Shown here: in pieces, positions 15,018 to 31,950 of the stretch
Position numbering within the stretch: position 1 is the first letter of the stretch
Layout: each line of letters begins with the position of its first letter
Assembly: GCA_965204675.1 (NCBI GenBank)
Contig: OZ242003.1
Coordinates: forward strand, 5,901,295 to 5,965,294
DNA: 64,000 bases
Source: Vicinamibacterales bacterium
Lineage (GTDB): Bacteria > Acidobacteriota > Vicinamibacteria > Vicinamibacterales > UBA8438
Direction of reading: 5' to 3'
Made by a program: the position numbers and the translations under genes
The notes under the pieces: generated by a model
Told to the model about the DNA's origin: nothing
What the model saw: the letters and a program-made list of their open reading frames with translations, nothing else
Database searches by the model: none

Positions 15018-15251
15018 AGCCCATCGTCGTCCGTCGACCCCAGTCAACCTGCGGATCGTCGGCGCTCGCCTCTATCGCGTACAGGTAGCTGGTGGCGCGC
15101 AGGAGGATCTGCCCGTCGGGACACCGCGATCGAACGCGGAGCCCATCGTCGTCCGTCGACCTCAGTCGCCCACGGACCGTCGGCGTTCGCCTATCGCGTA
15201 GAGATGGCCGGTGGTGCGCAGGAAGATCTGCCCGTCGGACACCGCGATCGA
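15018..15251 (-). repeat. Diverged tandem duplication (122-nt period) of the 3' end of the beta-propeller gene
   Basis: 15018-15133 versus 15140-15251. They encode DGQILLRATSYLYAI versus [15 protein letters not shown]. Confidence 0.85.
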
Positions 15252-16502
15252 GCTGAGGACGTAGTCGTCGAGGTCGTTCTCGGCGAGCAACTCGAACGCG
15301 GGCCCCGCCCGGAAGACGCTGGTCAGACCGCCCTCGCTGGTGATGTAGACCTTGCCGTCGGCCAGCACCGGCGAGGCGCTGTAGGTACCCGGCCGCAGAC
15401 GCTGGCGGCCGTAGATCTCCTCCCCGGTACGCGCGTCGAGCACCCACACGATGCCCTGGTCGTTGACGGTGTAGAAGTACTCGCCGTCAGTCACCGGGGT
15501 CGGCACGTCGGGCCCGTTGTCGGTCTTCCACACGAGGTGCGAGGTGGTGACGTCGCCCCGGCCGCCGGCCCGGAGGGCGAGGAGGGGGCGGACCCGGGTC
15601 GGCGCGTAGATCATGTCGCCGTGCACGACCGGCGACGCGATGATTCGGTAGGCGCCGTTGTTGCGCGGGTTGAGGCCGTCGGCCCGCCACAGCTCGCGCC
15701 CCGTGGCGAGGTCGTGCCCGGTCACGACGTCGCCGCCGGTGATCACGATCTCGCGCGCGCCGTCGTACTCGAGGAGGGCGGGCGTGGTGTACGAGTCGGG
15801 CGACTCGCGGCGGGCGTCGGTGGGGCGCTCGACCCGCCAGACGGTCTCGCCGGTGTGGCGGTCGATGCGCAGCACGTAGGACGGGTCGTCGGTGCGCATG
15901 CCGTGGATGACCTGGACGAACAGGGCGTCGTCGACCAGGAGCGGCGACGACGCGTAGCCCCAGTTCAGCCCGAACCGGCCGTACGACGCCTGGATGTCGC
16001 GCTGCCACAACGGGTTGCCGTCGAAGTCGAAGGCGGTCAGCCGGCCCGTCCCCGTCATCACGTAGACGTGCTCGCCGTTGGTCACCGGCGACGGCGACGA
16101 CATGTTCTGCTTCCGCAGCCGCCGGTCGCCGTCGCTCAGGTGTCGCACCCACAGCGTCTCGCCACGGTTCCGATCGAGGCACCACAGGGTGATGTTCTCG
16201 CCGTCGGCGACGTTCAGGAAGATGCGCTCGCCCCAGACGATCGGCGTCGACCCCGTCCACGCGGGCATCTCCACCTTCCAGGCCACGTTCGTGTCCGGCC
16301 CCCACGTCACCGGCAGGCCGGTCTCGGCGCTGATGCCGTTGGCGGACGGCCCCCGCCAGTGCGGCCAGTTCTCGCCCGCCCCGGCGGCGGTCGCGGCGGT
16401 CAGAGCGGCGAGCATGGCCACCGCTACGGCCCCGACCCGGACCCCGTGCACCCCTGTACCGACTCCAATGGCAACACCCGGCGTCCACTGCATCCGCATC
16501 AC
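15162..16502 (-). CDS. PQQ-binding-like beta-propeller repeat protein (exported)
   Basis: [36 protein letters not shown] and [12 protein letters not shown] repeats. The start codon is uncertain. Confidence 0.85.
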
Positions 16503-16636: not shown

Positions 16637-17656
16637 CTACTGCTGCTCGGTGGCCGCGGCCCGCTCCTCCGCCCGCGCGCCGCTCAGCAGGTTGAACATG
16701 CCGTGGTTGCCCTCGTGGCAGGCGTACTCGTAGAGGGGCGCGTCGGACCGGTTCAGCGGGAACCGGCCCGTGAACGGCGCCGTCCACGTGTCGGGATCGT
16801 CGACCGTGAACTCGTAGCGGATGGTGTCGCCGTCCACCCGGGTGAACCGCTCGACGAGGCGCGTGTTCTCGGCCGACCCCCAGGAGACGAACGAGGTGTT
16901 GAAGCTGCCGGTCCCGTTCGTGAAGTTGGTCGTCTCGACCACCAGGGTGTCGCCCTCCCACCGGCCGCGCGAGCTCCCCAGCCACTGGCGGACGTCCGAC
17001 GGCAGCGCGTCGCGCCCGTCCATCGGCACGACCCGCACGTCGTGCACCATCTCGTGGAGCAACACCACGTAGCCCGGCGCCTGGAAGATCTGCACGTTGT
17101 TGTTGTAGCCGCCCGGCAGCATCGGCGGCCCGGTGCTGAAGCCGAGCAGGCACCGCTCGGCCACCCCGCGCGCCTCGGGGCCGTCCTCGTTGAGGCCGCC
17201 CACCCGCACCCGCACCGGGTAGCCGCCGCCCGCGCGGTGCGCCTCGGCCGACTCCTCGGCCGCCGCCGTCAGCGTCGGCAGCCGGCCGTCCGGCGGGTCC
17301 ACGAGCAGCGACGCCTGGGTCAGCGCCGTCGGCCGCGCCCGGTCCGTCCACACCTCCTGGCTGTACCCCCCGGGGTCGCCCGGCGGCGGGCCGTCCGCGT
17401 CGCGGGCCAGCGCCGCATCGGTGCCGCGCTGGCCGACCACCGCCGCCTCCTCGGCCGTCAGCTCGCCGCGCTCGCCGAACTCCTCGGGCCTCTCGAGCGG
17501 CGTGAACGTCCAGTAGTCCCAGACCCCCTGCAGGTCCGGATCTCCCCACGGCGTGCGGGGCCCCTCCGCCCCCGTCTGCCCCGCCGCGGGCACCGACGAC
17601 AACGACAACGCCGCGGCCAGCGCCGCAACCCCTGCCAATCTGGACAATCGCTTCAT
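16637..17656 (-). CDS. Exported conserved hypothetical protein (PRTPWGDPDLQGVW family)
   Basis: Signal peptide; PRTPWGDPDLQGVW, ERCL, YNNNVQIFQ, WLGSSRGRWEGDTLVVETTNF and YEYACHEGN. Confidence 0.8.
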   Translation of the reverse strand: MKRLSRLAGVAALAAALSLSSVPAAGQTGAEGPRTPWGDPDLQGVWDYWTFTPLERPEEFGERGELTAEEAAVVGQRGTDAALARDADGPPPGDPGGYSQEVWTDRARPTALTQASLLVDPPDGRLPTLTAAAEESAEAHRAGGGYPVRVRVGGLNEDGPEARGVAERCLLGFSTGPPMLPGGYNNNVQIFQAPGYVVLLHEMVHDVRVVPMDGRDALPSDVRQWLGSSRGRWEGDTLVVETTNFTNGTGSFNTSFVSWGSAENTRLVERFTRVDGDTIRYEFTVDDPDTWTAPFTGRFPLNRSDAPLYEYACHEGNHGMFNLLSGARAEERAAATEQQ

Positions 17657-17828
17657 CACGGATCCCCTTTCCCGCCAGCCATCCCTCCGAACCCGGCACC
17701 GGGTCGAGTCGACTTCCGATTCCTGCAATTATGACTCATCCCGGGTCGCCTGCCGGCGCCGGTCGCTCACGGGCATGGGCGCCGCAAGACGCGGTCGCCC
17801 GCCACCTGCATCGAAGGAGTTGTGATAA

Positions 17829-18462: not shown

Positions 18463-20631
18463 CTACGCCAGCCCCGCCTGACGGAGCAGGAACGCGTACT
18501 GCAGCGCTGTCTCGCGGTAGCGGCGGTAGCGGCCGGAGACGCCGCCGTGGCCGGCGTCCAGGTTGGTCTTGAGCAGCAGCGGACGGGTGTCGGTCTTCAG
18601 GGCGCGCAGCTTCGCCACCCACTTCGCGGGCTCCCAGTACTGCACCTGGGAGTCGTGCAGGCCGGCGAGGACGAGCAGGGCGGGATAGTCGCGGGCAGTG
18701 ACGTTGTCGTAGGGCGAGTAGGCGAGGATGTCGTCGAACGCGGCGCGCTCGCGGGGATTGCCCCACTCGTCGTACTCGCCGGTGGTCAGGGGAATGGAGT
18801 CGTCGAGCATGGTCGTCAGCACGTCGACGAACGGGACCTGGGCGACCGCGCCGGCGAAGAGGTCGGGGCGCAGGTTGAGGACCGCGCCCATCAGCAGCCC
18901 GCCGGCGCTGCCGCCCATGGCGTAGAGGCGGTCGGACCGCGTGTAGCCCTGGCGGACGAGGTGCTCGGCGCAGGCGATGAAGTCGGTGAACGTGTTCCGC
19001 TTGCGGCCCAGGCGCCCGTCGTCGTACCAGTGCCGGCCGAGCTCCTGCCCCCCGCGCACGTGGGCGATCGCGAACCGGAAACCGCGGTCGAGCAGGCTCA
19101 GCCGCGCCGAGTTGAACGCGGGGTCCATCGAGATCCCGTAGGCCCCGTACCCGTACAGCAGCAGCGGTCGCGTCCCGTCCCGCGGCGTGCCGGCCCGCGC
19201 GACGAGCGAGATGGGCACCTGCCGCCCGTCGGAGGCGGTCGCGAGCACCCGCTCGGCCGCGTAGTCCGCCGGGTCGAAGCCTCCCAGCACCTCCTGACGC
19301 TTCAGCAGGGTGCGCGAGCGCGCCTCCATGTCGTAGTCGTAGGTCGACCGCGGCGTGGTCAGCGACTCGTAGCCGAACCGCAGCAGGCGGGTGTCGGCCT
19401 CGCGGTTCACCGACACGTGCACGTCGTAGACCGGCTCGTCGAAGGCGATGTCGTGCGCGCCGTCCCCCGACCAGGGACGCACGTGCAGTCGGCTCAGGCC
19501 GCCGCGACGCTCCTGCAGCACGAGATGGCCGCGGAACAGCGCCAACGACTCGAGGAGCACGTCGTCGCGGTGCGGCACCACCTCGACCCACCGCTCGGGC
19601 GGGGTCCCGGCGGCGCCGGTTTCCATCAACCGGAAGTTGCGGGCGCGGTGGTTGGTGCGCACGTAGAAGCGGTCGCGATAGTGGTCGACGTCGTACTCGT
19701 GGTCGCGCTCGCGGGGCCAGAACACGTCGAACGCGCCGTCGGGCCGGTCGGCGTCGAGCAGCCGGTACTCGGTGGACACCGTCTGCGCCGACGCGATCAG
19801 CAGGTAGCGTTTCGACCGGCTTTTCCCCACCTCGCAGTTGAACGTCTCGTCCGCCTCCTCGTAGACGAGGACGTCCTCGGCCTGCGGGGTGCCCAGCGTG
19901 TGCCGCCAGACCTGGTGCCAGCGCAGCGTCTCGGGATGCTGGCGCGTGTAGAAGAGGGTGCGGTTGTCGTTGGCCCAGACGAGGTTGCTCGTCACGCCCG
20001 CCAACTCGTCCTCGAGCAGGGCATCGGCGGCCAGGTCCTTCACACGGATGGTGTGGATGCGGCGGCCTTCGACGTCGATCGCATAGCCGAGCAGGCGCCC
20101 GTCGGGGCTGACCTCCAGCGCCGACACCTGGCAGAAGTCGTGCCCCTCGGCCAAGGCGTTGACGTCAAGCAGAACCTGCTCCTCATCGACCGCTGTCGGG
20201 GCGTCAGCCAGCCGCCGGCAGTGGATGGGGTACTCCCGCCCGTCCTCGTATCGGGTGTAGTAGAGGTGCTCGCCCTCCCGGTACGGCACCGACATGTCGG
20301 TCTGCTTGATGCGCCCCTTGATCTCGGTGAACAGGGTCTCCTGCAAGTCCTCGGTCGGCGCCATCACCGCCTGCGTGTAGGCGTTCTCGGCCTCGAGATG
20401 GGCGGTGACGGCGGGGTCGCCGCGCTCGCGCAGCCAGTGGTAGTCGTCGACGCGCACCACGCCGTGCGTCTCGTGGCGCACGGGAGAGACCCGCGCCCGC
20501 GGCGCGGGAATCCCCGCCGTGGAGAGCGCCGCCGGCGAGGGAGGCCCGACCGCCGTCACCGCGTCTTCACCGGCAACGTCCCCGGCGGGTGGAGCACCTG
20601 CCGGACGTGTCGAAGGCTCGCCCGCCGTCAC
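18463..20631 (-). CDS. ptrB: Oligopeptidase B (peptidase S9A)
   Basis: RVDDYHWLR, LYGYGAYG, HVRGGQELG, GGSAGG (Ser), YDEWGNP, GLHDSQVQYWEPAKW and AGHGG. The start is GTG 20631 or 20559. Confidence 0.92.
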   Translation of the reverse strand: MTAGEPSTRPAGAPPAGDVAGEDAVTAVGPPSPAALSTAGIPAPRARVSPVRHETHGVVRVDDYHWLRERGDPAVTAHLEAENAYTQAVMAPTEDLQETLFTEIKGRIKQTDMSVPYREGEHLYYTRYEDGREYPIHCRRLADAPTAVDEEQVLLDVNALAEGHDFCQVSALEVSPDGRLLGYAIDVEGRRIHTIRVKDLAADALLEDELAGVTSNLVWANDNRTLFYTRQHPETLRWHQVWRHTLGTPQAEDVLVYEEADETFNCEVGKSRSKRYLLIASAQTVSTEYRLLDADRPDGAFDVFWPRERDHEYDVDHYRDRFYVRTNHRARNFRLMETGAAGTPPERWVEVVPHRDDVLLESLALFRGHLVLQERRGGLSRLHVRPWSGDGAHDIAFDEPVYDVHVSVNREADTRLLRFGYESLTTPRSTYDYDMEARSRTLLKRQEVLGGFDPADYAAERVLATASDGRQVPISLVARAGTPRDGTRPLLLYGYGAYGISMDPAFNSARLSLLDRGFRFAIAHVRGGQELGRHWYDDGRLGRKRNTFTDFIACAEHLVRQGYTRSDRLYAMGGSAGGLLMGAVLNLRPDLFAGAVAQVPFVDVLTTMLDDSIPLTTGEYDEWGNPRERAAFDDILAYSPYDNVTARDYPALLVLAGLHDSQVQYWEPAKWVAKLRALKTDTRPLLLKTNLDAGHGGVSGRYRRYRETALQYAFLLRQAGLA

Positions 20632-23600
20632 GGCGTCTTCACCGGCGGGGCGGGGCGCGTGGGCAGCGGCCGCGGGTCCTCCCGGATCATCCGGGTGATC
20701 TCCGCGATGGCCCGCTCGAGTTGGGGGTCGCCGCCCGCGATGACCGACTTCGGGTCGTTCTCGACCTCGATGTCGGGCTCGACCCCGTAGCCCTCGATGA
20801 CCCAGCTCCCGTCGCGGCCGGCGGTGCCGAACTCGGGCACGTTGACGGAACCCCCGTCGATGAGCGGCCCGCGGTTGGTGATGCCGATGACGCCGCCCCA
20901 CGAGCGCTTCCCGATGAGCGGCCCGAGGCCCGCCGCCTTGAAGCGGGCGGGGAAGATGTCGCCGTCCGAGGCGGAGTCCTCGTCGAGGATGCACACGAGG
21001 TGGCCGGTGAACACCGTCGTGGGATAGGTCTCGGTGTTCTCCACCGTCCGCGAGAAGCCGGTGCCGAGGAGCTCGCGGCTCAGGCGCTGGATGAGCATCG
21101 CCGACACGTTGCCGCCCCCGTTGCCGCGCACGTCGATGATCAGGCCGTCCTTGCGGATCTGGCCGTAGAAGTACTTGATGAACTCCTGGATGCCGGCGAC
21201 GCCCATGTCGGGGATGTGCAGGTAGCCGACCCGCCCCTCCGTCGCCGCGTCGACCTTCATCCGGTTCGCGGTCACCTCGTCGAGGTAGCGCAGGTTGGTC
21301 TCGCTCGTGACGGGCCGGATGGTCACCTCGCGCGCCGCGCCCTCGGCGGCGGGGAACGCCGGCGCCGTGCTCAGGGTCAGCCGCACCGGGCGGTCCGCCT
21401 TGTGCCGCAGCAGGCGGTAGGGGTTGTCGCCGCCCGCGAGCTCCTCGCCGTCGATGGCGAGCACGTAGTCGCCGACGCCGGCGTCCACCCCGACCTCGGT
21501 CAGCGGCGCCCGGTAGCGCGGCTCCTCGTTGTGCCCCTCGAAGATCTCGGCCAGCCGGTAGCGGCCGGCGTCGCGGTCGAGCTCGAACACGGCCCCCGGC
21601 AGGGCCACCGGGGGCCGATCCGGGGTCTCCCAGTCGCCGCCGGCGATGTAGGCGTGGCTGACGCTCAGCTCCGCCACCATCTCGCCGATCACGTAGTTCA
21701 GGTCCGACCGGTGGGCAACGTGCTCGAGCCACGGGCGGTACTGCTCGCGCAGGGCCTCCCAGTCGTAGCCGTGCATGTTGTCGACGTAGAAGAAGTCGCG
21801 GAAGCGCCGCCACACCTCGTCGAAGATCTGCTCCCACTCCTCGGCCGGCACCCGGTCCACCATCAGCCCCGCCGTGGACACGGTGTCCGGGTCGCCGGCG
21901 CCCGAGGCGTTGTGCAACTGGAAACGCCCCCCGGTGGCGACGAGCACCTTCTCGCGGTCGCCGGACACCGCGTAGCCGCCGACGTTCGCGGCCAGCGTCT
22001 CGGTCTCGCGATCCTCGAACGAGAAGGTCTGCACCTCGGTCGGGACGTCGCCGCCGCGCCCGTAGAACTGCGCGCCGGTGCGGATGAAGAACACCCGGTC
22101 GTTGCCGGCGCTCAGCCCCACGTAGTTGTCGAACGTGACGGGCAGCCGGACGACCCGCCGCGCGAGGCCGTCGAACTCGATGCGGATCGGCCCCTCGTCG
22201 TCACCGTCGGCCGACGCGTCGTCGTCCCCGTCGTCCCCGCCCTCGTCCCCGGCGTCGTCGTCCGCCTCCACCGTCACCTCGTCGCTCTCCGGCGGCAGGG
22301 GGTGCGGCACGTCCTTCCGCAGGGCCAGCGCGTAGATGCCGGTCTCGCGGTCGACGAGGTAGTTCCACTCGAACGACCCGAGCTGGGGGGTGAACGAGCG
22401 GTCCGACAGGTAGTAGAGGTACTCGCCGTCGGGGTCCCAGGCCGGGTTCCACTCGTGGAACAGGTCGCTCGTCACCTGGCGCGACTCCCCGCCGGCCCGC
22501 TCCCAGACGTGGATCGAGCTGAAGCCGGTGTCGTCGGTCAGCGAGAACGCGAGGTAGCCGCCGCGCGGCGACCACACGTGGTCCTGGAGCTGCCCGTTCG
22601 CCTCGTCGGCGACGAGCGTCGACTCCCGCGACTCGACGTCGAGGACGTAGAGGCGGCCGTCCTTGTCGCTGAACGCCAACTGGTCCCCGTCGGGTGACCA
22701 CGACGGCGCGTACCGCATCGCCTCGCCGCCGTCCGTGAGCTGCTCGGCGGGGCCGCTGCCGTCCTGCGGCACGACGTAGATCTCGTCCTCGCCGTCGCGG
22801 TCCGAGACGAACGCGATGCGCGAGCCGTCGGGCGACCAGCGCGCCCACTTGTCGTGGGCGTCCGAGCTGCGGGTGAGGTTGCGGGTCGGGCCGTTCTCGA
22901 TCGGCGCCGTGAACACGTCGCCGCGGGCCACGAACAGGGCGCGCTCGCCCTTGGGGCTCAGCTCGAAGTCCTCGATCTGCCCCGCCGCCGACACCCGCGC
23001 CGGCCGCGCCGCCACCCCGTCGTCGGGCACCACGATGGGAATCGGCCGCGACTCGCCGCCGTCGATGCTGTAGAGGTGCAGCTCGCCGTTCATCTCGTAG
23101 ACGATCCGGTTCGCGCCGTCGTCGCCGGGCCACCGCACGTCCCACTGCGTGCTGTCGGTGAGCTGCGCGGTCTGGCCGCCGCCGAGGTCGAACCTGTACA
23201 GGTTCAGGGTGCCGTCGCGGTCGGACGTGAAGTAGATGGCGTCGCCGATCCACATCGGGTCGCGGTCGGCGCGCGGATGGTCGGTGACCCGCTCGACGTC
23301 GTGGGTCTCGCGGTCGAACACGTAGAGCTCCTGCGCCCAGCCCCCCTCGTAGCGCTTCCACGTCCGGAAGTCGCGGAACAGCGGCGAGTACACCACCCGG
23401 GTGCCGTCCGGGGAGAGGTCCCCCGCGCCCGACTCGGGCATCGGCAGGGGCACGGGGAGCCCCCCGTCGGTCGAGGCGAGGAAGAGACGGCTGTCCGACA
23501 GGTCGGTGCTGTAGCGCAGCGACCGGAACAGCACCGACCCCCCGTCCGGGGTCCAGTCGTAGACCTGGTTGTCGTAGCCCCAGCGCGGCGCGAGCGGCCC

Positions 23601-23924
23601 GCGGGCCGGATACCACGTCAACTGCCGCGGCACGCCGCCCGCCGTCGGCACGACGTAGACCTGCTCGTCGCCGTCGTACTGACCCGTGAACGCGATCCAC
23701 TGCCCGTCGGGAGAGAACTTCGGGAAGATCTCCAGCCCCGGGTGGGCAGTCACCCGCACGGCCGTACCGCCCGCCGTCGGCACGGTCCACAGGTCCCCCG
23801 CGTACACGAACACGATGCGGTCGCCGTGCACGTCCGGGAACCTCAACAGCCGGGTCTGGGCGCCGGCCGGCGCTGCCATCGCGACGAGCGTTACCAATGC
23901 CGCCAGATATCGAACTGTCCTCAT
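20628..23924 (-). CDS. Tricorn-type protease (S41), exported
   Basis: Signal peptide; LLRFPDVHGDRIVF, TolB-like propellers, PDZ region, GYLHIPDM, IDVRGNGGG and SASDGD. Confidence 0.92.
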   Translation of the reverse strand: MRTVRYLAALVTLVAMAAPAGAQTRLLRFPDVHGDRIVFVYAGDLWTVPTAGGTAVRVTAHPGLEIFPKFSPDGQWIAFTGQYDGDEQVYVVPTAGGVPRQLTWYPARGPLAPRWGYDNQVYDWTPDGGSVLFRSLRYSTDLSDSRLFLASTDGGLPVPLPMPESGAGDLSPDGTRVVYSPLFRDFRTWKRYEGGWAQELYVFDRETHDVERVTDHPRADRDPMWIGDAIYFTSDRDGTLNLYRFDLGGGQTAQLTDSTQWDVRWPGDDGANRIVYEMNGELHLYSIDGGESRPIPIVVPDDGVAARPARVSAAGQIEDFELSPKGERALFVARGDVFTAPIENGPTRNLTRSSDAHDKWARWSPDGSRIAFVSDRDGEDEIYVVPQDGSGPAEQLTDGGEAMRYAPSWSPDGDQLAFSDKDGRLYVLDVESRESTLVADEANGQLQDHVWSPRGGYLAFSLTDDTGFSSIHVWERAGGESRQVTSDLFHEWNPAWDPDGEYLYYLSDRSFTPQLGSFEWNYLVDRETGIYALALRKDVPHPLPPESDEVTVEADDDAGDEGGDDGDDDASADGDDEGPIRIEFDGLARRVVRLPVTFDNYVGLSAGNDRVFFIRTGAQFYGRGGDVPTEVQTFSFEDRETETLAANVGGYAVSGDREKVLVATGGRFQLHNASGAGDPDTVSTAGLMVDRVPAEEWEQIFDEVWRRFRDFFYVDNMHGYDWEALREQYRPWLEHVAHRSDLNYVIGEMVAELSVSHAYIAGGDWETPDRPPVALPGAVFELDRDAGRYRLAEIFEGHNEEPRYRAPLTEVGVDAGVGDYVLAIDGEELAGGDNPYRLLRHKADRPVRLTLSTAPAFPAAEGAAREVTIRPVTSETNLRYLDEVTANRMKVDAATEGRVGYLHIPDMGVAGIQEFIKYFYGQIRKDGLIIDVRGNGGGNVSAMLIQRLSRELLGTGFSRTVENTETYPTTVFTGHLVCILDEDSASDGDIFPARFKAAGLGPLIGKRSWGGVIGITNRGPLIDGGSVNVPEFGTAGRDGSWVIEGYGVEPDIEVENDPKSVIAGGDPQLERAIAEITRMIREDPRPLPTRPAPPVKTP

Positions 23925-24003
23925 GACGTTTTCTCCGGGCGCCCGGCCAGCCGCGCCGGACCGCCCCTTGCTTCTCCGGTGGGCTCCCCCCACCGTTTCC
24001 GTC

Positions 24004-27000
24004 CTACTCGGACCGCAGCGACGCCAACAGCGGCGACCGCACCGCGGCGGCGGTGGCGGCCAGCGACGAGGCGAGGCCGGCCGCGGCCACCGCGAGCAGC
24101 ATGCCGCCCAGCCCCACGACGGGGAACTGGCCGCCCCGCTCGATCCACGCCGGGGCTATCGCCACGACCGCGCACACCGTGCCGATGGCGAGGCCGCCGA
24201 ACAGGAGCAGGCCGTTCTCGACCAGCACCATCAGCGACACGTGCCGCGTGTCGTAGCCCACGGCGCGCAGCAGGGCCAGCTCGCGCCGCCGCTCCAGCAC
24301 GTTCCTGAGCAGCACCGCCCCCAGCCCCAGCGTCCCCAGCAGGAGGCCGAGGGCCCCCAGGGTCTGGAACGTGGCGAGGTAGGTGTTGTTGACGCGGTGG
24401 AAGGCGGCGAGGCGCTCCGGCGTCGAGGTGACGTCGAACCCGTAGTCGGCGAGCCGGTCCTCGAGGGCCGCGGTCGCCTCCGCGGTCCGGTCCACCGGCG
24501 TGTCCACGAGGAAGAAGCGGTACCCGTCGTGCTCGGGGAACAGGCGCAGGAACGCCGCCTCGCCGACGATCAGCTCGCGCTGGAAGATGCTGTCGGAGAG
24601 GGCCGCGACGATGCGCAAGGTGACGGGGTTGTCGCTCTCCCGGTTGAGCACGAAGTCGTCGCCCACCGAGAGGTGCAGCGCGTAGGCCAGCGACGTCGCG
24701 TCGGCGATGGCGGGGACCGCCCCGTCGTCGAAGACGCGGTCGAGGAGCAGCCAGGGGTTGGCGGCCTCCTCTTCCGTCTCGGCCAGCGTCGCCCCGAACC
24801 GGAAGCGCCCCTCCGGCAGGAACGCCGCCTCGGGCGCGAGCAGCCGCGGGTCCTTCGCCTGGTAGAGGTTGAGGCAGCTCGTGTCCTCGCCCGGCCGCAG
24901 ACGGAACCGCGCGTAGGACACATCGGCGAAGATCTCGTCGTCGAACGACGACACCCCCAGCTCTTCCCGCTCGTCCTCCGACCCGAGGTCGCGGACGATC
25001 GGCAGCAGCGACTCGGCCAGGAGCGGATAGCCGCCGGTGCCCGACGACCGGCCGCCGACGTCTCCCCCACCCTCGAGATGGAAGGCGTCGACGGCCACGA
25101 TGATGAACGAGGCGAACGCGATGAGGGTGATGCACAGGACGGAACGGCCGGGGCGGGCCGTGGTGTTGCGCAGTCCGACCCGGGACACCGTCCACGTCGA
25201 CGGCGCCGCCACGCCGGCCGGCGCCTGCCGGCCCAGCCACGACCACGACAGCGTGAGCAGCGACGCCAGCAGCAGCATGCCCGCCCCGAAGAAGCCGGCG
25301 GTGTCGCCGACGACGCCGGCCACGGTCACCGCAAGCACGGCTGCGCCGAGCAGCCCGAGGACGGCGGGGGCGTGGCGCGCGGCGGCGGCGGCGCGCGAAG
25401 GCGGCGCGTCCCCGTCGCCATCGCCGGGCGACGCGACGGCCCCGGACGAGGGCAGCACGCCGTGGATGAGGGCGCGCGGGGTCGCCCGCGCCACCATGCG
25501 CAGGCTCCACGCGATGGACACCACCGCCGCCGCCATGCCGCCGCCGATGCCCGCGGCGAGGGCGACGGGCGACACGTGCAGCACGAGCAGGGTGGTGCCC
25601 ACCGCGTCGACCCACCACGTGCGCAGGCCCCACATGATCAGCTCGGCGTAGCCCACCGCGCCGGCCGCCCCCACGAGCCCCCCGACGAGAGAGAGGGCCC
25701 CCGCCTCCGCCCAGAACAGCCGCCGCACGCTCCCCTCGTCGAAGCCGAGGGCGCGCAGGGCGCCGATCTCGCGCAGGCGCTGCTCGACCCCGAGGCGGAA
25801 GAAGAGGCTCGCGAGCAGCAGGGCCGACACCACGAGGAAGAAGCTGAAGTAGGTGAAGTACTCGCCGAAGTCGGTCACCCCGGCCGACGCCTCGAGGGCG
25901 AGGTCGCGGGCGGGATAGACGACGAAGCCGGCCCCGAGGGGATCGAGCCGGGGCCGGAGCGCGTCGCGGAAGGCCGCCGCCGCGAGGTCCGAGACCCCGT
26001 CCGGCGGAAAGACCCGTAGCGAGGTCACCTGTCCCCACCGGGAGCCCCAGAGCCGCTGGCCGTCCTCGAGGGCGATGAACCCCTTCGACGCGGTCCGATA
26101 CTCGTCCCAGTAGTCCTCGTCCTTCGGGCGCACGAGGCCGAGGTCGATGGGGAACGGCGGGTCCCAGTCGGACAGGTCCGTGGCCTCGGTGATGCCGGGG
26201 TACTCCGGCGCGAGGTCCTGGTCGACGGCCAGCCCCGCCATCGGCACCACCCCGGCCACCCGGAAATCGGCGGTCTCGGTGACCAGCGCGCCCGCCTCTT
26301 CCCACAGGTAGTACTGCAGGGTCACCGTATCGCCGGGCGCCGCCTCGAGATCGTCGGCCGTCCACGCGTTCAGCCAGATCGGCGGCGGTGCCTCGTCGGC
26401 CGCCTCGCCGCCGGCGACAGGGGCGGTCGGCGCCACCGCGGCGACGGGCGGCGCGACCTGTCCGCGAGCCGGGTCGGCGCCACCGCGCGGGCCGGCGCCG
26501 AGCGGGGTCCCCGCGGCGGGCGGCGCGACCTGTCCGCCGGCCGGGCCGGCGGCCCCGCCCGGGTCGGGGCCGAGTGGAACCCCCGCGCCGGACGCCGCGT
26601 CTCCCGGCGGGGCGACGCCCAGCGACGCGAGATCCAGCGCGGTCACCAGCGAGTACGGCGTGACCCGCTCGCCCCGCCGGATCTCGTTGGCCAGATAGGT
26701 CAGGATGGGTTGCTCGCCCAGGTCGCCGCCCGCGGTCGCGGCCCGCGCGGCGGCGACGACGTCGTCGTTCAGCAGCCCCGCCGTCGACTCCACCGCCAGG
26801 GCGCCCGGCCCCGGAAGCGCCCGCACCCGCAGACCGAGGTCGCCGAGCTGCGTGGTGGCCCGCAGGGCCGCCTCGATGCCGGCCACCGCCGGCGCCCCCG
26901 CTCCGACCCCCGCTAGCAGCAGGGTGTTGGCTTCGCGGCCCAGCTCGAGGTCGCGCTGCATGCGCTCGAGATTGACGAAGACGGCGCGCGAGAACCCCTG

Positions 27001-27702
27001 CTGGGGCCGGAACGAGAACTCCCCCAGGTCGGCGGGGGCGAGCACCTCGCGGATGCCCAGCCGCATCGTGCTCCCCAGGTCGTCGCGCCGCCCGTGCAAC
27101 GAGCTGACGGGGATGGCCGAGGGCTTCTGCACCCGAACGAGCAGCGTGTCCTCGGCCGCCGCGCCGAGCTCGCGGGCGAGGCCGCCGCTCACCAGCACCT
27201 CGCCGGGCCCGGGTCCGCGCCCGCCGTCCAGGGCCGCGCCGTCGGGCCTGCCGTCTGGCCCGCTGCCAAGCCCGCCGTCAGGCCCACCGTCAGTTGTGTT
27301 GAAGGCCCAGAACCGGTCGTCCACCCCGTAGACCTGGATGCCGCCGGCGCGGCTGCCGCTCTCCTGGTGGGTGACGAAGCCCTCGAGCGCGATCATCGGC
27401 ACCGCCGTCGCCGCCGCAGGCGACCCTGCCGCCGGCGACGCGCCGGCCGCGGAGCCGCCGAGCGCGTCGGAGGCCACCACCTCCTCGGCGAGCGCCTCCC
27501 GAAAGAACGCGCCGGCCGTCACGACGTGGTCGACGCTCCCCAGCCGCTGCAGGGCGAGGTCGCGCAGGCTGGCCCGCACCGACGTCCCCACCAGGAACGC
27601 CCCCGCGAGCACCGACACCGCCACGCCGACCCCGGCGACCACCGCGAGGTTGATCCGCCAGAAGTGGGTCAGGCTCCGGAGCAGCAGGGTGATGGAGGTC
27701 AT
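24004..27702 (-). CDS. Large fused double FtsX/MacB-like ABC permease
   Basis: FWRINLAVVAGV TM start, large periplasmic domains, EQRLREIGALRALG and ERRRELALLRAVG FtsX motifs. Confidence 0.85.
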   Translation of the reverse strand: MTSITLLLRSLTHFWRINLAVVAGVGVAVSVLAGAFLVGTSVRASLRDLALQRLGSVDHVVTAGAFFREALAEEVVASDALGGSAAGASPAAGSPAAATAVPMIALEGFVTHQESGSRAGGIQVYGVDDRFWAFNTTDGGPDGGLGSGPDGRPDGAALDGGRGPGPGEVLVSGGLARELGAAAEDTLLVRVQKPSAIPVSSLHGRRDDLGSTMRLGIREVLAPADLGEFSFRPQQGFSRAVFVNLERMQRDLELGREANTLLLAGVGAGAPAVAGIEAALRATTQLGDLGLRVRALPGPGALAVESTAGLLNDDVVAAARAATAGGDLGEQPILTYLANEIRRGERVTPYSLVTALDLASLGVAPPGDAASGAGVPLGPDPGGAAGPAGGQVAPPAAGTPLGAGPRGGADPARGQVAPPVAAVAPTAPVAGGEAADEAPPPIWLNAWTADDLEAAPGDTVTLQYYLWEEAGALVTETADFRVAGVVPMAGLAVDQDLAPEYPGITEATDLSDWDPPFPIDLGLVRPKDEDYWDEYRTASKGFIALEDGQRLWGSRWGQVTSLRVFPPDGVSDLAAAAFRDALRPRLDPLGAGFVVYPARDLALEASAGVTDFGEYFTYFSFFLVVSALLLASLFFRLGVEQRLREIGALRALGFDEGSVRRLFWAEAGALSLVGGLVGAAGAVGYAELIMWGLRTWWVDAVGTTLLVLHVSPVALAAGIGGGMAAAVVSIAWSLRMVARATPRALIHGVLPSSGAVASPGDGDGDAPPSRAAAAARHAPAVLGLLGAAVLAVTVAGVVGDTAGFFGAGMLLLASLLTLSWSWLGRQAPAGVAAPSTWTVSRVGLRNTTARPGRSVLCITLIAFASFIIVAVDAFHLEGGGDVGGRSSGTGGYPLLAESLLPIVRDLGSEDEREELGVSSFDDEIFADVSYARFRLRPGEDTSCLNLYQAKDPRLLAPEAAFLPEGRFRFGATLAETEEEAANPWLLLDRVFDDGAVPAIADATSLAYALHLSVGDDFVLNRESDNPVTLRIVAALSDSIFQRELIVGEAAFLRLFPEHDGYRFFLVDTPVDRTAEATAALEDRLADYGFDVTSTPERLAAFHRVNNTYLATFQTLGALGLLLGTLGLGAVLLRNVLERRRELALLRAVGYDTRHVSLMVLVENGLLLFGGLAIGTVCAVVAIAPAWIERGGQFPVVGLGGMLLAVAAAGLASSLAATAAAVRSPLLASLRSE

Positions 27703-28418
27703 GGTCGTCCGCTCCCCGTCGTCTCGCCGCCGGCGGCGACGTTCTCGTCACCGTCCACGCGCTTCAGCCCCAGGCCCTCGAGCCGGTAGCGGATGGGGCA
27801 CCGCGCCGCCAGCTCGACGTTGTGGGTCACCACCAGCAGCACCGTCTCCTGCCCCCCGTGCAGGTCGAACAGCATGTCGGCCACGACCTCGCCGGCGGCG
27901 CGGTCGAGGTTGCCGGTGGGCTCGTCGCACAGCAGCAGCGGCGGGCGGCGGATCAGGGCGCGGGCGAGGGCGACGCGCTGGCGCTCTCCCCCGGACAGCT
28001 CGGCGGGACGGTGGTCGAGCCGGTCGGCGAGGCCCGCCCGCCCCAGCAGCTCGCGGGCGCGGTCCCCCGCCCCGTCCACCGGGTCCCCCACCAGGGTCGG
28101 CACCAGCACGTTCTCGAGCACCGTGCACTGCGGCAGCAGCAGGTGGTCCTGGAAGACGAAGCCGACGCGGCGGTTGCGAAACGCCGCGAGCTCGGCCGAC
28201 GCGAGGGCGAACGGGTCGACGCCGTCGAGGGTGACGCTGCCCGCGGTGGGCGGCTCGAGGGCGCCCAGGATGTAGAGCAGGGTGCTCTTCCCGCTGCCCG
28301 ACGGCCCCACGATGGAGGCCGCCTCACCGGGTCTCAGCGCGAAATCGACCCCGGAGAGGATGTCGAGGGCGCCCCGCGGCGTCGGATACGACTTCGCGAG
28401 GCCGGTGACTTCGAGCAC
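27699..28418 (-). CDS. LolD/MacB-type ABC ATP-binding protein
   Basis: GPSGSGKST, GFVFQDHLL, LSGGERQR and LLCDEPTGNLD; ATGA overlap with the permease. Confidence 0.92.
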   Translation of the reverse strand: MLEVTGLAKSYPTPRGALDILSGVDFALRPGEAASIVGPSGSGKSTLLYILGALEPPTAGSVTLDGVDPFALASAELAAFRNRRVGFVFQDHLLLPQCTVLENVLVPTLVGDPVDGAGDRARELLGRAGLADRLDHRPAELSGGERQRVALARALIRRPPLLLCDEPTGNLDRAAGEVVADMLFDLHGGQETVLLVVTHNVELAARCPIRYRLEGLGLKRVDGDENVAAGGETTGSGRP

Positions 28419-28461
28419 TGGGACCTCCAGGGCCGGGCCGACCAGCGCCCGGCCAACCGGG

Positions 28462-29886
28462 CTACGACGCCTGCTGGAACGCCCGGGGACGGAACAGGAA
28501 GTCCACGATGTTCCCCTCGTGCGGCTGCAGCCAGTTGAGCCGGGTCGTGGGCACGGGGCCGAGGTTGAGCCGGTCGATGTTGCGGGCGTCGAGCAGGGCC
28601 CGCGAGAACGCCGGGTCCCCGGTCAGGCCGGTCGCCACGAGGGTCGTCCCGATCGCCCGGATCATCTTGTCCTGCGGGCACTCGACGACGGTGACGAAGG
28701 GGTACATGTACTCCTTCTTGGCCATCGCAACGTCGGGCGAGCCGCAGTGCACGACGGTGGGGCGCAGGTAGTCGCAACGCTCCATCGAGACGAGGCGGCC
28801 GCCGTCCTGGTGGCGCGCCGACACCTCCTCGACCCCGTCCTCCTTGAGGGCGTTGTCGATGTCGGCGGAGACCGCCGGCGCCTGCCCCGGCACCGTGAAC
28901 GCGGCCAGCTCGGCCTTGGGGTCGTCGGGGGGCAGGGGGGCGATGGGGCCGATGCGCTCGGCCACCGCCTCGGCGATCTTGCGGGTGTGCCGCGACGCCC
29001 AGATGCCCGAGCAGTTGATGCAGCCCCGCCCGCTGTTGATGGCCACGCTCTCGACCATCAGGTCGAGATACCGCTCCCAGTCGTCGACCACGTCGTCGCC
29101 GATGAGGATCTTGCTGAACCCGGGCCCGTGCACCTGGACGCCGGGGTTGGCGGCGTACTGCTCGACGGTGGCGGTGCCCCCGAAGATGAGGCTCCGCGGC
29201 GAGTTGTTCAGCACCGCGGCGCCGACCTCGCCGAGCCCCGGGTAGAGGGCGATGGCCTCGCGCGGCACCCCCGCCTGGAAGAACGCCTGGGCCATCCGCC
29301 ACGGGGTCCACGGCTCCTGCGGCCCCGGCTTCAGCACCAGCCCGATCTGCAGCGGGATGATCGGCAGCCACAGGCTGTGCACCCCGGGCGAGTTCGACGG
29401 CAGCACCATGCCGAGCACCGGCGTCGTCGCCTGGTAGCTGCGCATCACCCCGTCCTCCTCCCCGTAGCCGCGGGTGAGGATGTCGTAGTCGAGGCGGCGG
29501 GTCAGCGAGCGCAGGACGTCGTCGAGGTGGGTCAGCACGTACTCGAGCTTGCCCATGTTCATGCGGCACAGGTGCTCGGGCAGCCCCGTCGTGGCCGACT
29601 GCTGGCGCACGAAGTCGTCGGGCGTCTGCACGCCGTCGCCCAGCGGCAGATCCGCCGACTTGAAGAGCTCGCCGCCCTTCTTGACCATCGCCAGCAGGTC
29701 CGCGCACGGAATCTCCCGCAGCACGTCGCGGGCCCGGTTCGCCCCCTTCCTCAGGTCCCGGGCGACGATGCCGGGGTTGGCCTGGCTGACCTCGGCCACC
29801 GGCTCGCCGGTCAGGAAGTGCTCGACCTTGGCGAGCTCGAGGCTCTTGTACTCCTGTCCCCAACGCAGAATCGGAAAGTGGATCAC
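28462..29886 (-). CDS. Aldehyde-dehydrogenase-fold acyl reductase (EhpG/GriD/LuxC-like)
   Basis: VLPSNSPGV, LVLKPG, IFGG, HGPGFSK, NSGRGCINCS (catalytic Cys position) and EYMYPF. Confidence 0.75.
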   Translation of the reverse strand: MIHFPILRWGQEYKSLELAKVEHFLTGEPVAEVSQANPGIVARDLRKGANRARDVLREIPCADLLAMVKKGGELFKSADLPLGDGVQTPDDFVRQQSATTGLPEHLCRMNMGKLEYVLTHLDDVLRSLTRRLDYDILTRGYGEEDGVMRSYQATTPVLGMVLPSNSPGVHSLWLPIIPLQIGLVLKPGPQEPWTPWRMAQAFFQAGVPREAIALYPGLGEVGAAVLNNSPRSLIFGGTATVEQYAANPGVQVHGPGFSKILIGDDVVDDWERYLDLMVESVAINSGRGCINCSGIWASRHTRKIAEAVAERIGPIAPLPPDDPKAELAAFTVPGQAPAVSADIDNALKEDGVEEVSARHQDGGRLVSMERCDYLRPTVVHCGSPDVAMAKKEYMYPFVTVVECPQDKMIRAIGTTLVATGLTGDPAFSRALLDARNIDRLNLGPVPTTRLNWLQPHEGNIVDFLFRPRAFQQAS

Positions 29887-29887
29887 G

Positions 29888-30994
29888 TCAGTACACTCCC
29901 ACCGTGGTCGCCGACGCGAGCCGGCTGAACGGGCGCACCCCGCTCACCCCGTCCCATGGATACTGCTCGCACGGCGGCTCGCGCTCGCCCTCGTCGCGCT
30001 CCTGGAAGCGCGGCACGAAGAACTCCTTCGTCAGCGTCGTCAGCATCACCCGGCCGGTCTCGCCGTACCCGACCACGCGGTCCGCGTCGTCGGGGTCCAC
30101 GACCTGCAGGACGGCCCGCGGCTGCGGCGCGTAGTAGGTGATCTTGTAGCCGTTCTCGGGGCCGCTCGGGGGGCTGCCGGCGAGGCCCATGAGGGTGTTG
30201 CCGTAGGTCGGTGTCATGTAGATGCCGTCGAGCAGCTCCTCGTGGGCGAAGCGGTTCCACTGCGGCGTGAACTCGGTGCCGCCGGCGAAGATGCCGGTGA
30301 TGCCGGTGTCCTTCAGGCACGACCCGTCGGCCTCGAGGCGGTTGGCGAGGGCCTCGAGCAGCTTGGGGGTCGAGAACAGGCACCTGATGTCGTGCCCGGC
30401 CGACAGCACCGTGATCGCCTGGTCGATGACGTGGTCCTGGTAGGCCTTCAGGTGCTCCATCCAGCCCTTCTTGATGAGCTTGATGACCCACCGTGGATCG
30501 AGGTCCACGCAGAAGCAGATGCCGCCCCGGTGCTGGGCGAGGTGCTCGACCGCGAGCCGCAGCCGCCGGGGGCCGCTCGGCCCCAGCATGAGCCAGTTGC
30601 TGCCCTTCGGGAAGTGCTCGTCGGGCAGGGTCTCCGAGAACAGCTCGTAGTCGATGCGGAAGTCCTCCTGGGCGACCCGGCTCTTGGGGATGCCGGTGGT
30701 GCCGCCGGTCTCGAACACGAACGTCGGCCGGTCGGCGTAGGCCCTGGGCACCCAGCGGCGGACGGGGCCGCCCCGCAGCTTCTCGTCCTCGAAGTGGGGG
30801 AACTTCGCGAGGTCGTCGAACCCGTGGACCTCGCCCCGCGGGTCCCACCCCGCGTCGCGCGCCCAGTCGAGCCAGAACGGACACCCGGTGTCGGGGTTGA
30901 AGTGCCACTCGACGATCTCGCGCACCCAGGCGTCGAGCGCCGTCCTCGCCTGGGCCGCCCTGGTCTCAGCCGTGCTGCTCTCCGTAGTCATCAA
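29888..30994 (-). CDS. EhpF/GriC-like adenylate-forming enzyme (truncated ANL fold)
   Basis: WHFNPDTGCPFW, FETGGTTGIPK (P-loop), DLDPRWV, GGTE, TYGNT, GETGRVMLT and ERD. These motifs match my recollection of Pantoea EhpF (WHFSKETGSPFW, ESGGTTGAPK, DIDPRWV). Confidence 0.75.
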   Translation of the reverse strand: MMTTESSTAETRAAQARTALDAWVREIVEWHFNPDTGCPFWLDWARDAGWDPRGEVHGFDDLAKFPHFEDEKLRGGPVRRWVPRAYADRPTFVFETGGTTGIPKSRVAQEDFRIDYELFSETLPDEHFPKGSNWLMLGPSGPRRLRLAVEHLAQHRGGICFCVDLDPRWVIKLIKKGWMEHLKAYQDHVIDQAITVLSAGHDIRCLFSTPKLLEALANRLEADGSCLKDTGITGIFAGGTEFTPQWNRFAHEELLDGIYMTPTYGNTLMGLAGSPPSGPENGYKITYYAPQPRAVLQVVDPDDADRVVGYGETGRVMLTTLTKEFFVPRFQERDEGEREPPCEQYPWDGVSGVRPFSRLASATTVGVY

Positions 30995-31069: not shown

Positions 31070-31546
31070 ATGGGACGTCTGGAACGGATCTGGGTGAAAC
31101 GGTTCCACCGCGGCCCGATGGACCCGGTTGACGCCGCCGACCTCCGGCGAGGCGCCGGCATCGTGGGCAACGCCAACCAGGGGGGCTGGCGACAGGTCAC
31201 GATCATCGCGGCCGCCGACTGGGACCGCGTCGTCGAGGCGCTCGCGACGGCGGTCGACCCTGGAGAGAGGCGCGCCAACCTGCTCGTCAGCGGGGTCGCC
31301 CTCGCGCACACCCGCGACCGCGTCCTGCAGGTGGGCGGCTGCCGGCTGCGGGTGCGCGGCGAGACCCGCCCCTGCGAGCGGATGGACGAAGCCGAGCCGG
31401 GCCTGCGCGCCGCCCTCGACCCCGGGTGGCGGGGAGGCGTGTTCGCCGAGGTGCTCGACGACGGCCGCATCGTCGTCGGCGACCCCGTCGCGTGGACGGA
31501 ACCGGCGCCGTCAGGCGAGGGCCGCGGTCAGACCGACTCGAGCTGA
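31070..31546 (+). CDS. MOSC domain protein
   Basis: RQVT, RRANLLVSG, ETRPCERM and GGVFAEVLDDGRIVVGD. Confidence 0.85.
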   Translation: MGRLERIWVKRFHRGPMDPVDAADLRRGAGIVGNANQGGWRQVTIIAAADWDRVVEALATAVDPGERRANLLVSGVALAHTRDRVLQVGGCRLRVRGETRPCERMDEAEPGLRAALDPGWRGGVFAEVLDDGRIVVGDPVAWTEPAPSGEGRGQTDSS

Positions 31547-31863
31547 TCCGTCTTGGCCGCGAAGACGAAGTCGCTCTCCGTCAGGCCGTCGATCTTGTGC
31601 GTCCAGATGGTGACGGTGGCCCGACCCCACGCCAGCAGGATGTCGGGATGGTGGCCCTGCTCCTCGGCCATCTCGCCGACCCGCACCGTGAAGTCGAGGG
31701 CCCGGCGGAAGTCCTCGAAGCGGTAGGTCTTCTCGAGGTGGTGCCCGTCGACCACCTCCCAGCCCCCGCCGAGCTGCCGCTGGTACCCGGCCAGCTCCTC
31801 GCCGGCGAGGGGCGGGACCCCGCCCCGGCAGGGCACGCACTGCTTCGACGCGAGCTCGCTCAT
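31528..31863 (-). CDS. phhB: Pterin-4-alpha-carbinolamine dehydratase
   Basis: LASKQCVPC, KTYRFEDF, GHHPD and WTHKIDGLTESDFVFAAK. Confidence 0.92.
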   Translation of the reverse strand: MSELASKQCVPCRGGVPPLAGEELAGYQRQLGGGWEVVDGHHLEKTYRFEDFRRALDFTVRVGEMAEEQGHHPDILLAWGRATVTIWTHKIDGLTESDFVFAAKTDQLESV

Positions 31864-31950
31864 GCGTCTTCCTCCGATGCCGGTCATGCCGGCACAGGCA
31901 CTATCATAGTGGGTTGGACTGCCGATCGCGACTCCTCAGGAGGCTCACCG

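Follow-up and report, generated by a model that had tools for sequence, protein, structure and literature searches.

Does a compact run of bacterial genes encode one pathway, or do neighbors with separate histories lie side by side in it? We addressed this question for positions 18463-30994 of a 64,000-nucleotide (nt) stretch of DNA from a Vicinamibacterales bacterium (phylum Acidobacteriota; assembly GCA_965204675.1, contig OZ242003.1, positions 5,901,295 to 5,965,294 of the forward strand), which we refer to as the window. The run consists of six co-directional open reading frames (ORFs) on the minus strand, named A to F in transcription order. A is an EhpF/GriC-type adenylase (29888-30994, 368 aa), B a reductase of the aldehyde dehydrogenase (ALDH) superfamily (28462-29886, 474 aa), C a LolD/YbbA-like ABC ATPase of type VII (27699-28418, 239 aa), and D a fused double-FtsX permease (24004-27702, 1232 aa). 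E is a tricorn protease homolog with a Sec signal peptide (20628-23924) and F an oligopeptidase B (OpdB; 18463-20631). The original prediction, made from the sequence of the window, had joined all six in a route to a peptide or acyl aldehyde that is independent of nonribosomal peptide synthetases (NRPS), with export by C-D and with the peptidases acting in maturation or resistance. Comparison of the locus across genomes indicates instead that it probably has two layers: a system spread over several loci and conserved in Acidobacteriota and Planctomycetota, to which A to D and a periplasmic propeller protein, D2, belong, and a set of passenger peptidases inserted into it. As a unit, the six-gene run is no new system, and its core combines known kinds of components.

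Conservation and co-occurrence of the A-D genes

We collected 20-kb regions around the A ortholog from 35 genomes within the order and phylum, added a further 80 loci found by scanning one genome for each species, and mapped the window proteins onto all of these loci. The order A-B-GT4-C-D-D2 was found in at least 10 families of Vicinamibacterales and in other lineages of Acidobacteriota. GT4, the gene between B and C, encodes a glycosyltransferase of ~440 aa with an N-terminal CxxC. D2, located at 15162-16502 on the minus strand of the window, encodes a periplasmic beta-propeller of the PQQ_2 (BamB-like) type (Pfam PQQ_2, 102 bits) that carries a signal peptide and lacks a lipobox. D2 orthologs with 61-72% identity follow D at L029-L031, L049, L051, L069-L072, L080, L084, L111, L116, and L126. 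Because D2 stands directly after D in other families, it is the likely conserved periplasmic partner of C-D. In the clade of the window, GT4 is missing from the operon, and E, F, and a gene for a 363-aa protein are wedged between D and D2. A and B were adjacent or a few kb apart wherever both were found, Planctomycetota included.

We then searched an evenly drawn sample of 251 Acidobacteriota genomes with each protein, using the C-terminal 433 aa of D as the query for the permease. A was detected in 71 genomes, D in 76, and GT4 in 74; all three occurred together in 68, at least one occurred in 78, and none occurred in the remaining 173. A and D were shared by 69 genomes, leaving 2 with A alone and 7 with D alone, and most of these exceptions involve incomplete genomes or a divergent A paralog. 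Three further families had nearly the same distribution: D2 (58 genomes, all within the 78), an iron-dependent alcohol dehydrogenase (Fe-ADH; 64 genomes, 63 of them within the 78), and a HemN-like radical-SAM protein (62 genomes, all within the 78, an overlap that was read by eye). Presence and absence were also concordant inside families f2 and f9. All 11 A-positive genomes whose titles place them outside Acidobacteriota, which are mostly Planctomycetota with two labeled Acidimicrobiia and Clostridia, carry GT4. The predicted link between the reductase pair and the ABC genes thus withstood the wider comparison. Some of the GT4 and propeller matches contain one in-frame stop (TGA, TAG, or TAA), which we took to be alignment overrun at gene ends.

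The association does not depend on physical linkage. A and D lie 1.2 Mb apart in genome G184 and on different contigs in G262, and in these two genomes, as in G107 and G120, Fe-ADH and the radical-SAM gene are found beside GT4-C-D while A-B are located elsewhere. The Planctomycetota operon has the order A-B-FeADH-propeller, and four Acidobacteriota loci, L054-L057, likewise have this Fe-ADH after B. A 4HBT-family thioesterase is found beside GT4 in both phyla, and it has homologs in the genome of the window. Such crossed linkages are harder to explain by inheritance alone. The most complete arrangement is L056, where nearly the whole set forms a single co-directional run (propellers, A, B, Fe-ADH, radical-SAM, a Trp-halogenase-like flavoenzyme, an SSF symporter, GT4, and thioesterase).

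In the genome of the window the partners are dispersed, with Fe-ADH at 4.56 Mb and GT4 at 5.387 Mb, 540 kb from the operon and next to another propeller gene. A co-directional group 33-37 kb before the window (G000:C1:5864291-5868791) encodes a PQQ propeller, a HemN-like radical-SAM protein, a Trp-halogenase-like FAD enzyme, and a 4HBT thioesterase, and these same four families share one operon with A-B and GT4 in L055 and L056. The recurrent neighbors in our first census were B, PQQ propellers, GT4, C, and D only; Fe-ADH, the radical-SAM protein, and the thioesterase emerged from later neighborhood comparisons. In three Planctomycetota loci (L152-L154), a polyprenyl synthetase-DUF116 fusion and a protein of ~190-250 aa without a Pfam family are encoded beside GT4. 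The fusion may hint at an isoprenoid acceptor.

The reductase pair

A aligns with the EhpF structures in the PDB (3L2K/3HGU; E value 2e-41), with residues 12-357 placed on residues 13-354 of 366. It consists of the N-terminal ANL domain only, the mobile C-terminal ANL subdomain being absent as it is in EhpF, and its Pfam match is limited to a weak AMP-binding hit (22.5 bits). The P-loop of A, FETGGTTGIPKS, spans residues 94-105 and is invariant in 15 orthologs and paralogs. A is present as a single copy in the genome of the window, and its orthologs are 59-99% identical within Acidobacteriota and ~72% identical to those of Planctomycetota.

B matches the Pfam family Aldedh at 61 bits. In a residue alignment with the ALDHs 3B4W and 4PZ2, Cys289 of B aligns with the catalytic nucleophile and the oxyanion residue Asn165 is retained, while His253 occupies the position of the general-base Glu of hydrolytic ALDHs. 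This replacement fits an enzyme that reduces, rather than hydrolyzes, a thioacyl intermediate, and B is presumed from these features to be the acyl-AMP/thioester reductase partner of A.

Two-protein, ATP-dependent carboxylic acid reductases are represented by GriC/GriD (grixazone, Streptomyces griseus) and EhpF/EhpG (D-alanylgriseoluteic acid, Pantoea agglomerans), and the acid-to-aldehyde chemistry of the former is outlined in the summary given in PMC10179220. A-B have the architecture of these systems, in that A is a C-terminally truncated ANL adenylase encoded beside an ALDH-superfamily protein with a catalytic Cys. They do not share the genomic context: we found no phenazine or AHBA genes nearby, and A is tied instead to GT4, Fe-ADH, thioesterase, radical-SAM, type VII ABC, and periplasmic propeller genes. 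A also differs from GriC and EhpF in a conservation, within and between the two phyla, that is close to that of a housekeeping protein. A-B homologs are adjacent in Streptomyces, Burkholderia, and haloarchaeal plasmids, where some are annotated as arylcarboxylate reductase; the plasmid homologs of A, annotated either in this way or as AMP-binding protein, are 35-40% identical to A. A phenazine-like plasmid cluster of Streptomyces, which encodes a homolog of B (28% identity), was considered as a yardstick for EhpF/EhpG and set aside because the adjoining 366-aa protein is unrelated to A.

The wider gene set also resembles LuxCDE in having a thioesterase that would free an acid, an adenylating enzyme, and an ALDH-like reductase that would make an aldehyde. 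Unlike in LuxCDE, the structure nearest to A is EhpF. Membership in LuxCDE was rejected given that the Pfam models LuxC (PF05893) and LuxE (PF04443) match neither A nor B.

The ABC transporter pair

C scored 232.9 bits against the LolD model TIGR02211, under its cutoff of 307.75, and 201 bits against the YbbA model NF007879. Its best match in the PDB was LolD (186 bits), followed by YbbA (9GE6, 179 bits), and it matches the DevA family at 143 bits, with a weak match of D to DevC. D contains the Pfam FtsX domain twice, and a hydropathy scan predicts ~9-10 transmembrane (TM) segments, a first periplasmic domain of ~570 aa with Ala/Gly/Pro-rich inserts, and a second periplasmic domain of ~235 aa. 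A single-sequence search of the PDB with D returned no match, and a profile search of the PDB returned weak FtsX matches only, with no YbbP among them. We therefore modeled residues 760-1232 with AF2 (pLDDT 76). Foldseek searches with this model retrieved MacB (E value 1e-9), LolE, and YbbP (9GE6/9GE7), as well as isolated periplasmic domains of MacB and LolE; the highest query TM-scores were those of E. coli YbbP (0.46-0.48 for 9GE6/9GE7). The modeled part of D thus has the predicted fold of MacB, LolE, and YbbP. C-D have the features of a type VII (MacB/LolCDE/YbbAP) ABC transporter, namely an ATPase of the LolD/MacB type and an FtsX permease whose TM1 and TM2 flank a periplasmic domain.

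The inserts in the first periplasmic domain of D, at residues ~85-100, 145-175, and 360-440, are long and probably disordered. They add ~80-120 aa relative to most orthologs and show little conservation, even among members of the genus.

Like LolCDE and MacAB-TolC, C-D combine an ATPase whose best PDB match is LolD with a permease of the MacB/LolE fold; unlike in MacAB-TolC, no MacA-type adaptor is encoded among the recurrent neighbors. The YbbAP-TesA system of E. coli is a type VII ABC transporter that has a fused double-FtsX permease and a periplasmic hydrolase partner (PMC12646458). Its counterparts here are the YbbA-resembling ATPase, the two FtsX modules on one polypeptide, and the thioesterase in the wider gene set. 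In contrast to YbbP (804 aa), D has 1232 aa, a much larger first periplasmic domain, and no match at the sequence level. The thioesterase also differs, being a cytoplasmic-type 4HBT hotdog protein whereas TesA is a periplasmic SGNH enzyme, and the conserved gene downstream of the permease encodes a beta-propeller. We considered C-D as a housekeeping LolCDE system and rejected this assignment on three grounds: C falls below the LolD cutoff, the score against the LolC/E model TIGR02212 is 15.7 bits compared to a cutoff of 362, and only 76 of the 251 genomes carry D. A system carried by ~30% of the phylum is not the housekeeping Lol system.

Proposed pathway and the catabolic alternative

The co-occurring Fe-ADH, GT4, thioesterase, and radical-SAM genes suggest that the aldehyde would be an intermediate that is reduced and glycosylated, rather than an end product. 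The thioesterase may free a carboxylic acid, which A would adenylate to an acyl-adenylate. By homology to the logic of GriC/GriD and EhpF/EhpG, B would take the acyl group onto Cys289 and reduce it to the aldehyde with NAD(P)H. Fe-ADH, whose gene immediately follows B in two phyla, is positioned to reduce the aldehyde to an alcohol, and the CxxC-bearing GT4 could glycosylate this alcohol. C-D would next pull the amphiphilic product out of the inner membrane at its outer face and hand it to the periplasmic D2 propeller, in analogy to YbbAP-TesA and LolCDE-LolA (PMC12646458). In this scheme, the direction of catalysis, the order of the steps, and the handover to the propeller are all inferred, while the gene identities, synteny, and phyletic co-occurrence on which it is built are observed.

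A comparable logic is known from the heterocyst glycolipid pathway, in which a reduced acyl chain (an alcohol) is glycosylated and exported by a DevBCA-type ABC transporter. The proposed sequence from alcohol to glycoside to export by a DevA/DevC-like transporter follows the same pattern. The gene set differs in having neither a polyketide synthase nor a DevB adaptor, and its lipid substrate is putative only.

We tentatively propose that A to D, D2, Fe-ADH, the radical-SAM protein, the halogenase-like flavoenzyme, the thioesterase, and the CxxC-bearing GT4 could form one undescribed pathway, common to ~30% of Acidobacteriota and some Planctomycetota. Such a pathway might yield a glycosylated alcohol, such as an envelope glycolipid or amphiphile, with a YbbAP-like extractor and propeller carriers, and the clade of the window would additionally have recruited tricorn and OpdB. 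Soils, oceans, and sponges harbor many Acidobacteriota and Planctomycetota, and little is known about the envelope chemistry of these phyla. Given the adenylase identity between the phyla, the presence or absence of the genes as a block, and the combination of a reductase with a type VII extractor, the product would be a conserved cell constituent or an exported compound. A literature search did not find the combined Acidobacteriota/Planctomycetota system described, and found EhpF/EhpG and GriC/GriD in secondary mentions only. The quantitative co-occurrence, the membership of Fe-ADH and the radical-SAM protein, the fold of D, and the verdict on the peptidases are additions of this analysis.

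The alternative that survives best is a catabolic or uptake system, in which an imported alcohol or aldehyde would be oxidized by Fe-ADH and then by B, A would be an acid-activating ligase, and C-D would not export a product. TonB-dependent receptors, SSF symporters, and Trp-halogenase-like flavoenzymes are typical of utilization loci. All three are encoded in some of the operons, along with many periplasmic propellers, as this alternative would have it. The enzymes themselves point the other way, since B lacks the general-base Glu required for hydrolysis of a thioacyl-enzyme and A, like EhpF, lacks the C-terminal ANL domain that is used in thioester formation. Likewise, a GT4 in the cytoplasm together with a type VII extractor suits export better than import. 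We therefore regard catabolism as an unlikely, minority alternative to biosynthesis.

Identity and distribution of the peptidases

Both peptidases in the run are identifiable from their sequences. E contains the Pfam domains PD40, Tricorn_C1, PDZ_Tricorn, and Peptidase_S41 and aligns over its full length (residues 25-1092) with the Thermoplasma tricorn protease (1K32/1N6D; E value 3e-106); it is a complete tricorn homolog. Its SVSHAY motif aligns over RTSHSY of tricorn, and its SASDGDIF motif falls just beyond the displayed alignment, which ends as AGSDGDI of tricorn appears; we take these two motifs to hold the tricorn catalytic His and Ser. F matches Serratia OpdB (7YWP) at 737 bits (E value 2e-220) compared to 261 bits for prolyl endopeptidase, and it contains the motifs GGSAGG, HDSQV, and AGHGG. 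Its score against the NCBIfam equivalog NF007511, 729 bits, is below the cutoff of 1313. On this evidence we classify F as a true oligopeptidase B (S9A). E is one of three paralogs in the genome of the window, and F is the sole OpdB ortholog there and has no obvious signal peptide.

We placed the loci on a tree built from concatenated A, B, and C. All loci that have E or F close to D belong to one clade, made up of families f1 and f17, and the sister lineages of this clade have GT4 in the operon and no peptidase. Within the clade, the arrangement varies: D-E-F in the genus of the window and L022, D-E at L066, L068, and L073, D-F at L064 and L132, D-F-D2 at L069, L070, and L072, and neither peptidase at L065, L067, and L071. 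These states interleave on the tree, and the simplest history is one gain of E and F followed by repeated loss while A to D stayed. In our proposed account, E, F, and the 363-aa protein would have been inserted between D and D2 in the ancestor of this single Vicinamibacterales clade, with GT4 moving out of the operon in the same clade.

Elsewhere, apart from F in G023, the orthologs of E and F are not linked to A-D. In G023, E lies 2.7 Mb from A, while F has stayed ~10 kb downstream of A. In G111, no E was found and F lies 528 kb from A; in G262, no E was found and F is on another contig. In G033, G055, G072, and G088, both are on other contigs, except that no F was found in G033. Because E and F are limited to one clade, were repeatedly lost within it, and have orthologs that are unlinked to A-D in other genomes, they are best read from their sequences and distribution as passengers, that is, as later clade-specific additions that the A-D system would not require. 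The caution in the original prediction that the peptidases may be unrelated neighbors is thus the better reading, and its inclusion of them in the pathway is not supported: the neighborhood comparison bore out the reductase-ABC half of the proposal and did not tie the peptidases to it. It may be that tricorn and OpdB themselves form a recurrent pair. In G224, an unrelated Acidobacteriota genome, an OpdB ortholog (61% identity) is encoded divergently beside a tricorn paralog (39% identity), at G224:C1:3703019-3708999 and far from A-D.

Two other explanations assign the peptidases a role. By analogy with TesA/YbbAP and EnvC/FtsEX, the periplasmic tricorn E might be a clade-specific hydrolase partner of C-D, with the chemistry of A-B unrelated to proteolysis. 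Type VII ABC systems use periplasmic partners that include a hydrolase (PMC12646458). E would be suitably placed for such a role, since it has a signal peptide and follows D by 79 nt here and by 14-90 nt in congeners. We nevertheless consider this explanation very improbable, given that in every other lineage the gene conserved behind D encodes the PQQ propeller D2 and no protease and that E is missing in clade members L064, L069, L070, L072, L132, and G111.

The remaining explanation is the one originally predicted, in which all six genes form one unit for an NRPS-independent, leupeptin-like peptide or acyl aldehyde, exported by C-D, with tricorn and OpdB serving as maturation enzymes or as targets of self-resistance. 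Peptide aldehydes inhibit trypsin-like enzymes, to which OpdB belongs. The presence of F is in keeping with this explanation, as are the co-directional, tightly packed genes without a terminator-like site at their junctions and the keeping of F or E beside D across the whole clade. Even so, this explanation can be given little credence and a peptide aldehyde product is unlikely, because no ligase, ATP-grasp, NRPS, or other peptide-forming gene occurs among the recurrent neighbors (36 Acidobacteriota and 26 Planctomycetota loci), most lineages carry A-B-C-D, and Planctomycetota A-B, without the peptidases, the locus repeatedly lost E, or E together with F, while keeping A to D, the orthologs of E and F elsewhere are unlinked, and the genes found to co-occur encode an alcohol dehydrogenase and a glycosyltransferase.

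Several observations weigh against the two-layer reading and the biosynthetic scheme attached to it. E and F are packed tightly with D, with a 79-nt spacer and a GTGA overlap in the window, and at L069, L070, and L072, D and F either overlap or are spaced by 10 nt. The fact that E and F have been kept beside D over considerable divergence leaves room for a clade-specific functional tie. The co-occurrence counts come from genomes that are not phylogenetically independent, so a Fisher p of ~1e-51 overstates the case, although the concordance inside f2 and f9 helps. GT4 and D occur without A in G243, G280, and G128. In several families of the order, A-B-GT4-C-D-D2 is not accompanied by Fe-ADH or the radical-SAM gene, which indicates that the alcohol step would not be universal. 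Finally, the TonB receptor, SSF symporter, and halogenase-like flavoenzyme in some operons would equally fit an uptake or catabolic locus.

For annotation, the two-layer reading means that tricorn and OpdB should not be recorded as members of a biosynthetic cluster, and that the locus is not one to mine for a peptide aldehyde, that is, for a protease inhibitor.

Junctions and coding features of the run

The coordinates and junctions read from the sequence agree exactly with the six minus-strand genes, gaps, and overlaps originally described. A and B are separated by a 1-nt gap and B and C by 43 nt, C and D overlap by 4 nt, and the D/E spacer is 79 nt when measured to the E ATG at 23924, ahead of the signal peptide MRTVRYLAALVTLVAMAAPAGAQ. 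E and F overlap at a GTGA, where the GTG start of F at 20631 overlaps the E stop codon (20628-20630). All six ORFs have a GC content at third codon positions of 0.95-0.98, a coding signature that matches the 71% GC genome (the GC content of the window is also 71%). In consensus scans, we found no sigma-70-like promoter, and none of the junctions has a convincing intrinsic terminator; four weak terminator-like sites, which do not amount to an excess over the shuffled expectation of 2.8, all lie away from the junctions. Co-transcription is likely because of this tight packing, and E and F probably share a transcript with A to D here.

A 33-nt direct repeat spans the start of F, with copies at 20542-20574 and 20614-20646 that are 91% identical, spaced 72 nt apart, and in frame. 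Because the repeat copies the junction between the E stop and the F start, F has two in-frame GTG candidates, one at 20631 and one within the 20542-20574 copy. Homology to OpdB starts at residue 43 of the longer form of F.

Neighboring genes

The 363-aa secreted protein (16637-17728, minus strand) is encoded between F and D2 and has no Pfam family. It was seen only in the genus of the window, where it is 85-88% identical at L033-L035.

Upstream of A, a pterin-4a-carbinolamine dehydratase homolog is encoded at 31528-31887 on the minus strand (Pfam Pterin_4a, 96 bits). The same gene is found upstream of A at L021, L022, L024, L034, L035, and L059-L073, which is a family-level clade only, and its distance to A is sometimes 33-160 nt (L064, L065, L069, L072, and L024). 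No phenylalanine hydroxylase gene was found near it.

No relic of GT4 or of a DUF4399 gene was found inside the window, the 43-nt B/C gap and the 1-nt A/B gap included. A His-rich DUF4399 lipoprotein with an HHHxG motif is encoded between A and B at L021, L022, L024, and several of L064-L073. In the genus of the window, DUF4399 lies outside the operon, and the genome of the window has two paralogs, at 6.48 and 2.57 Mb.

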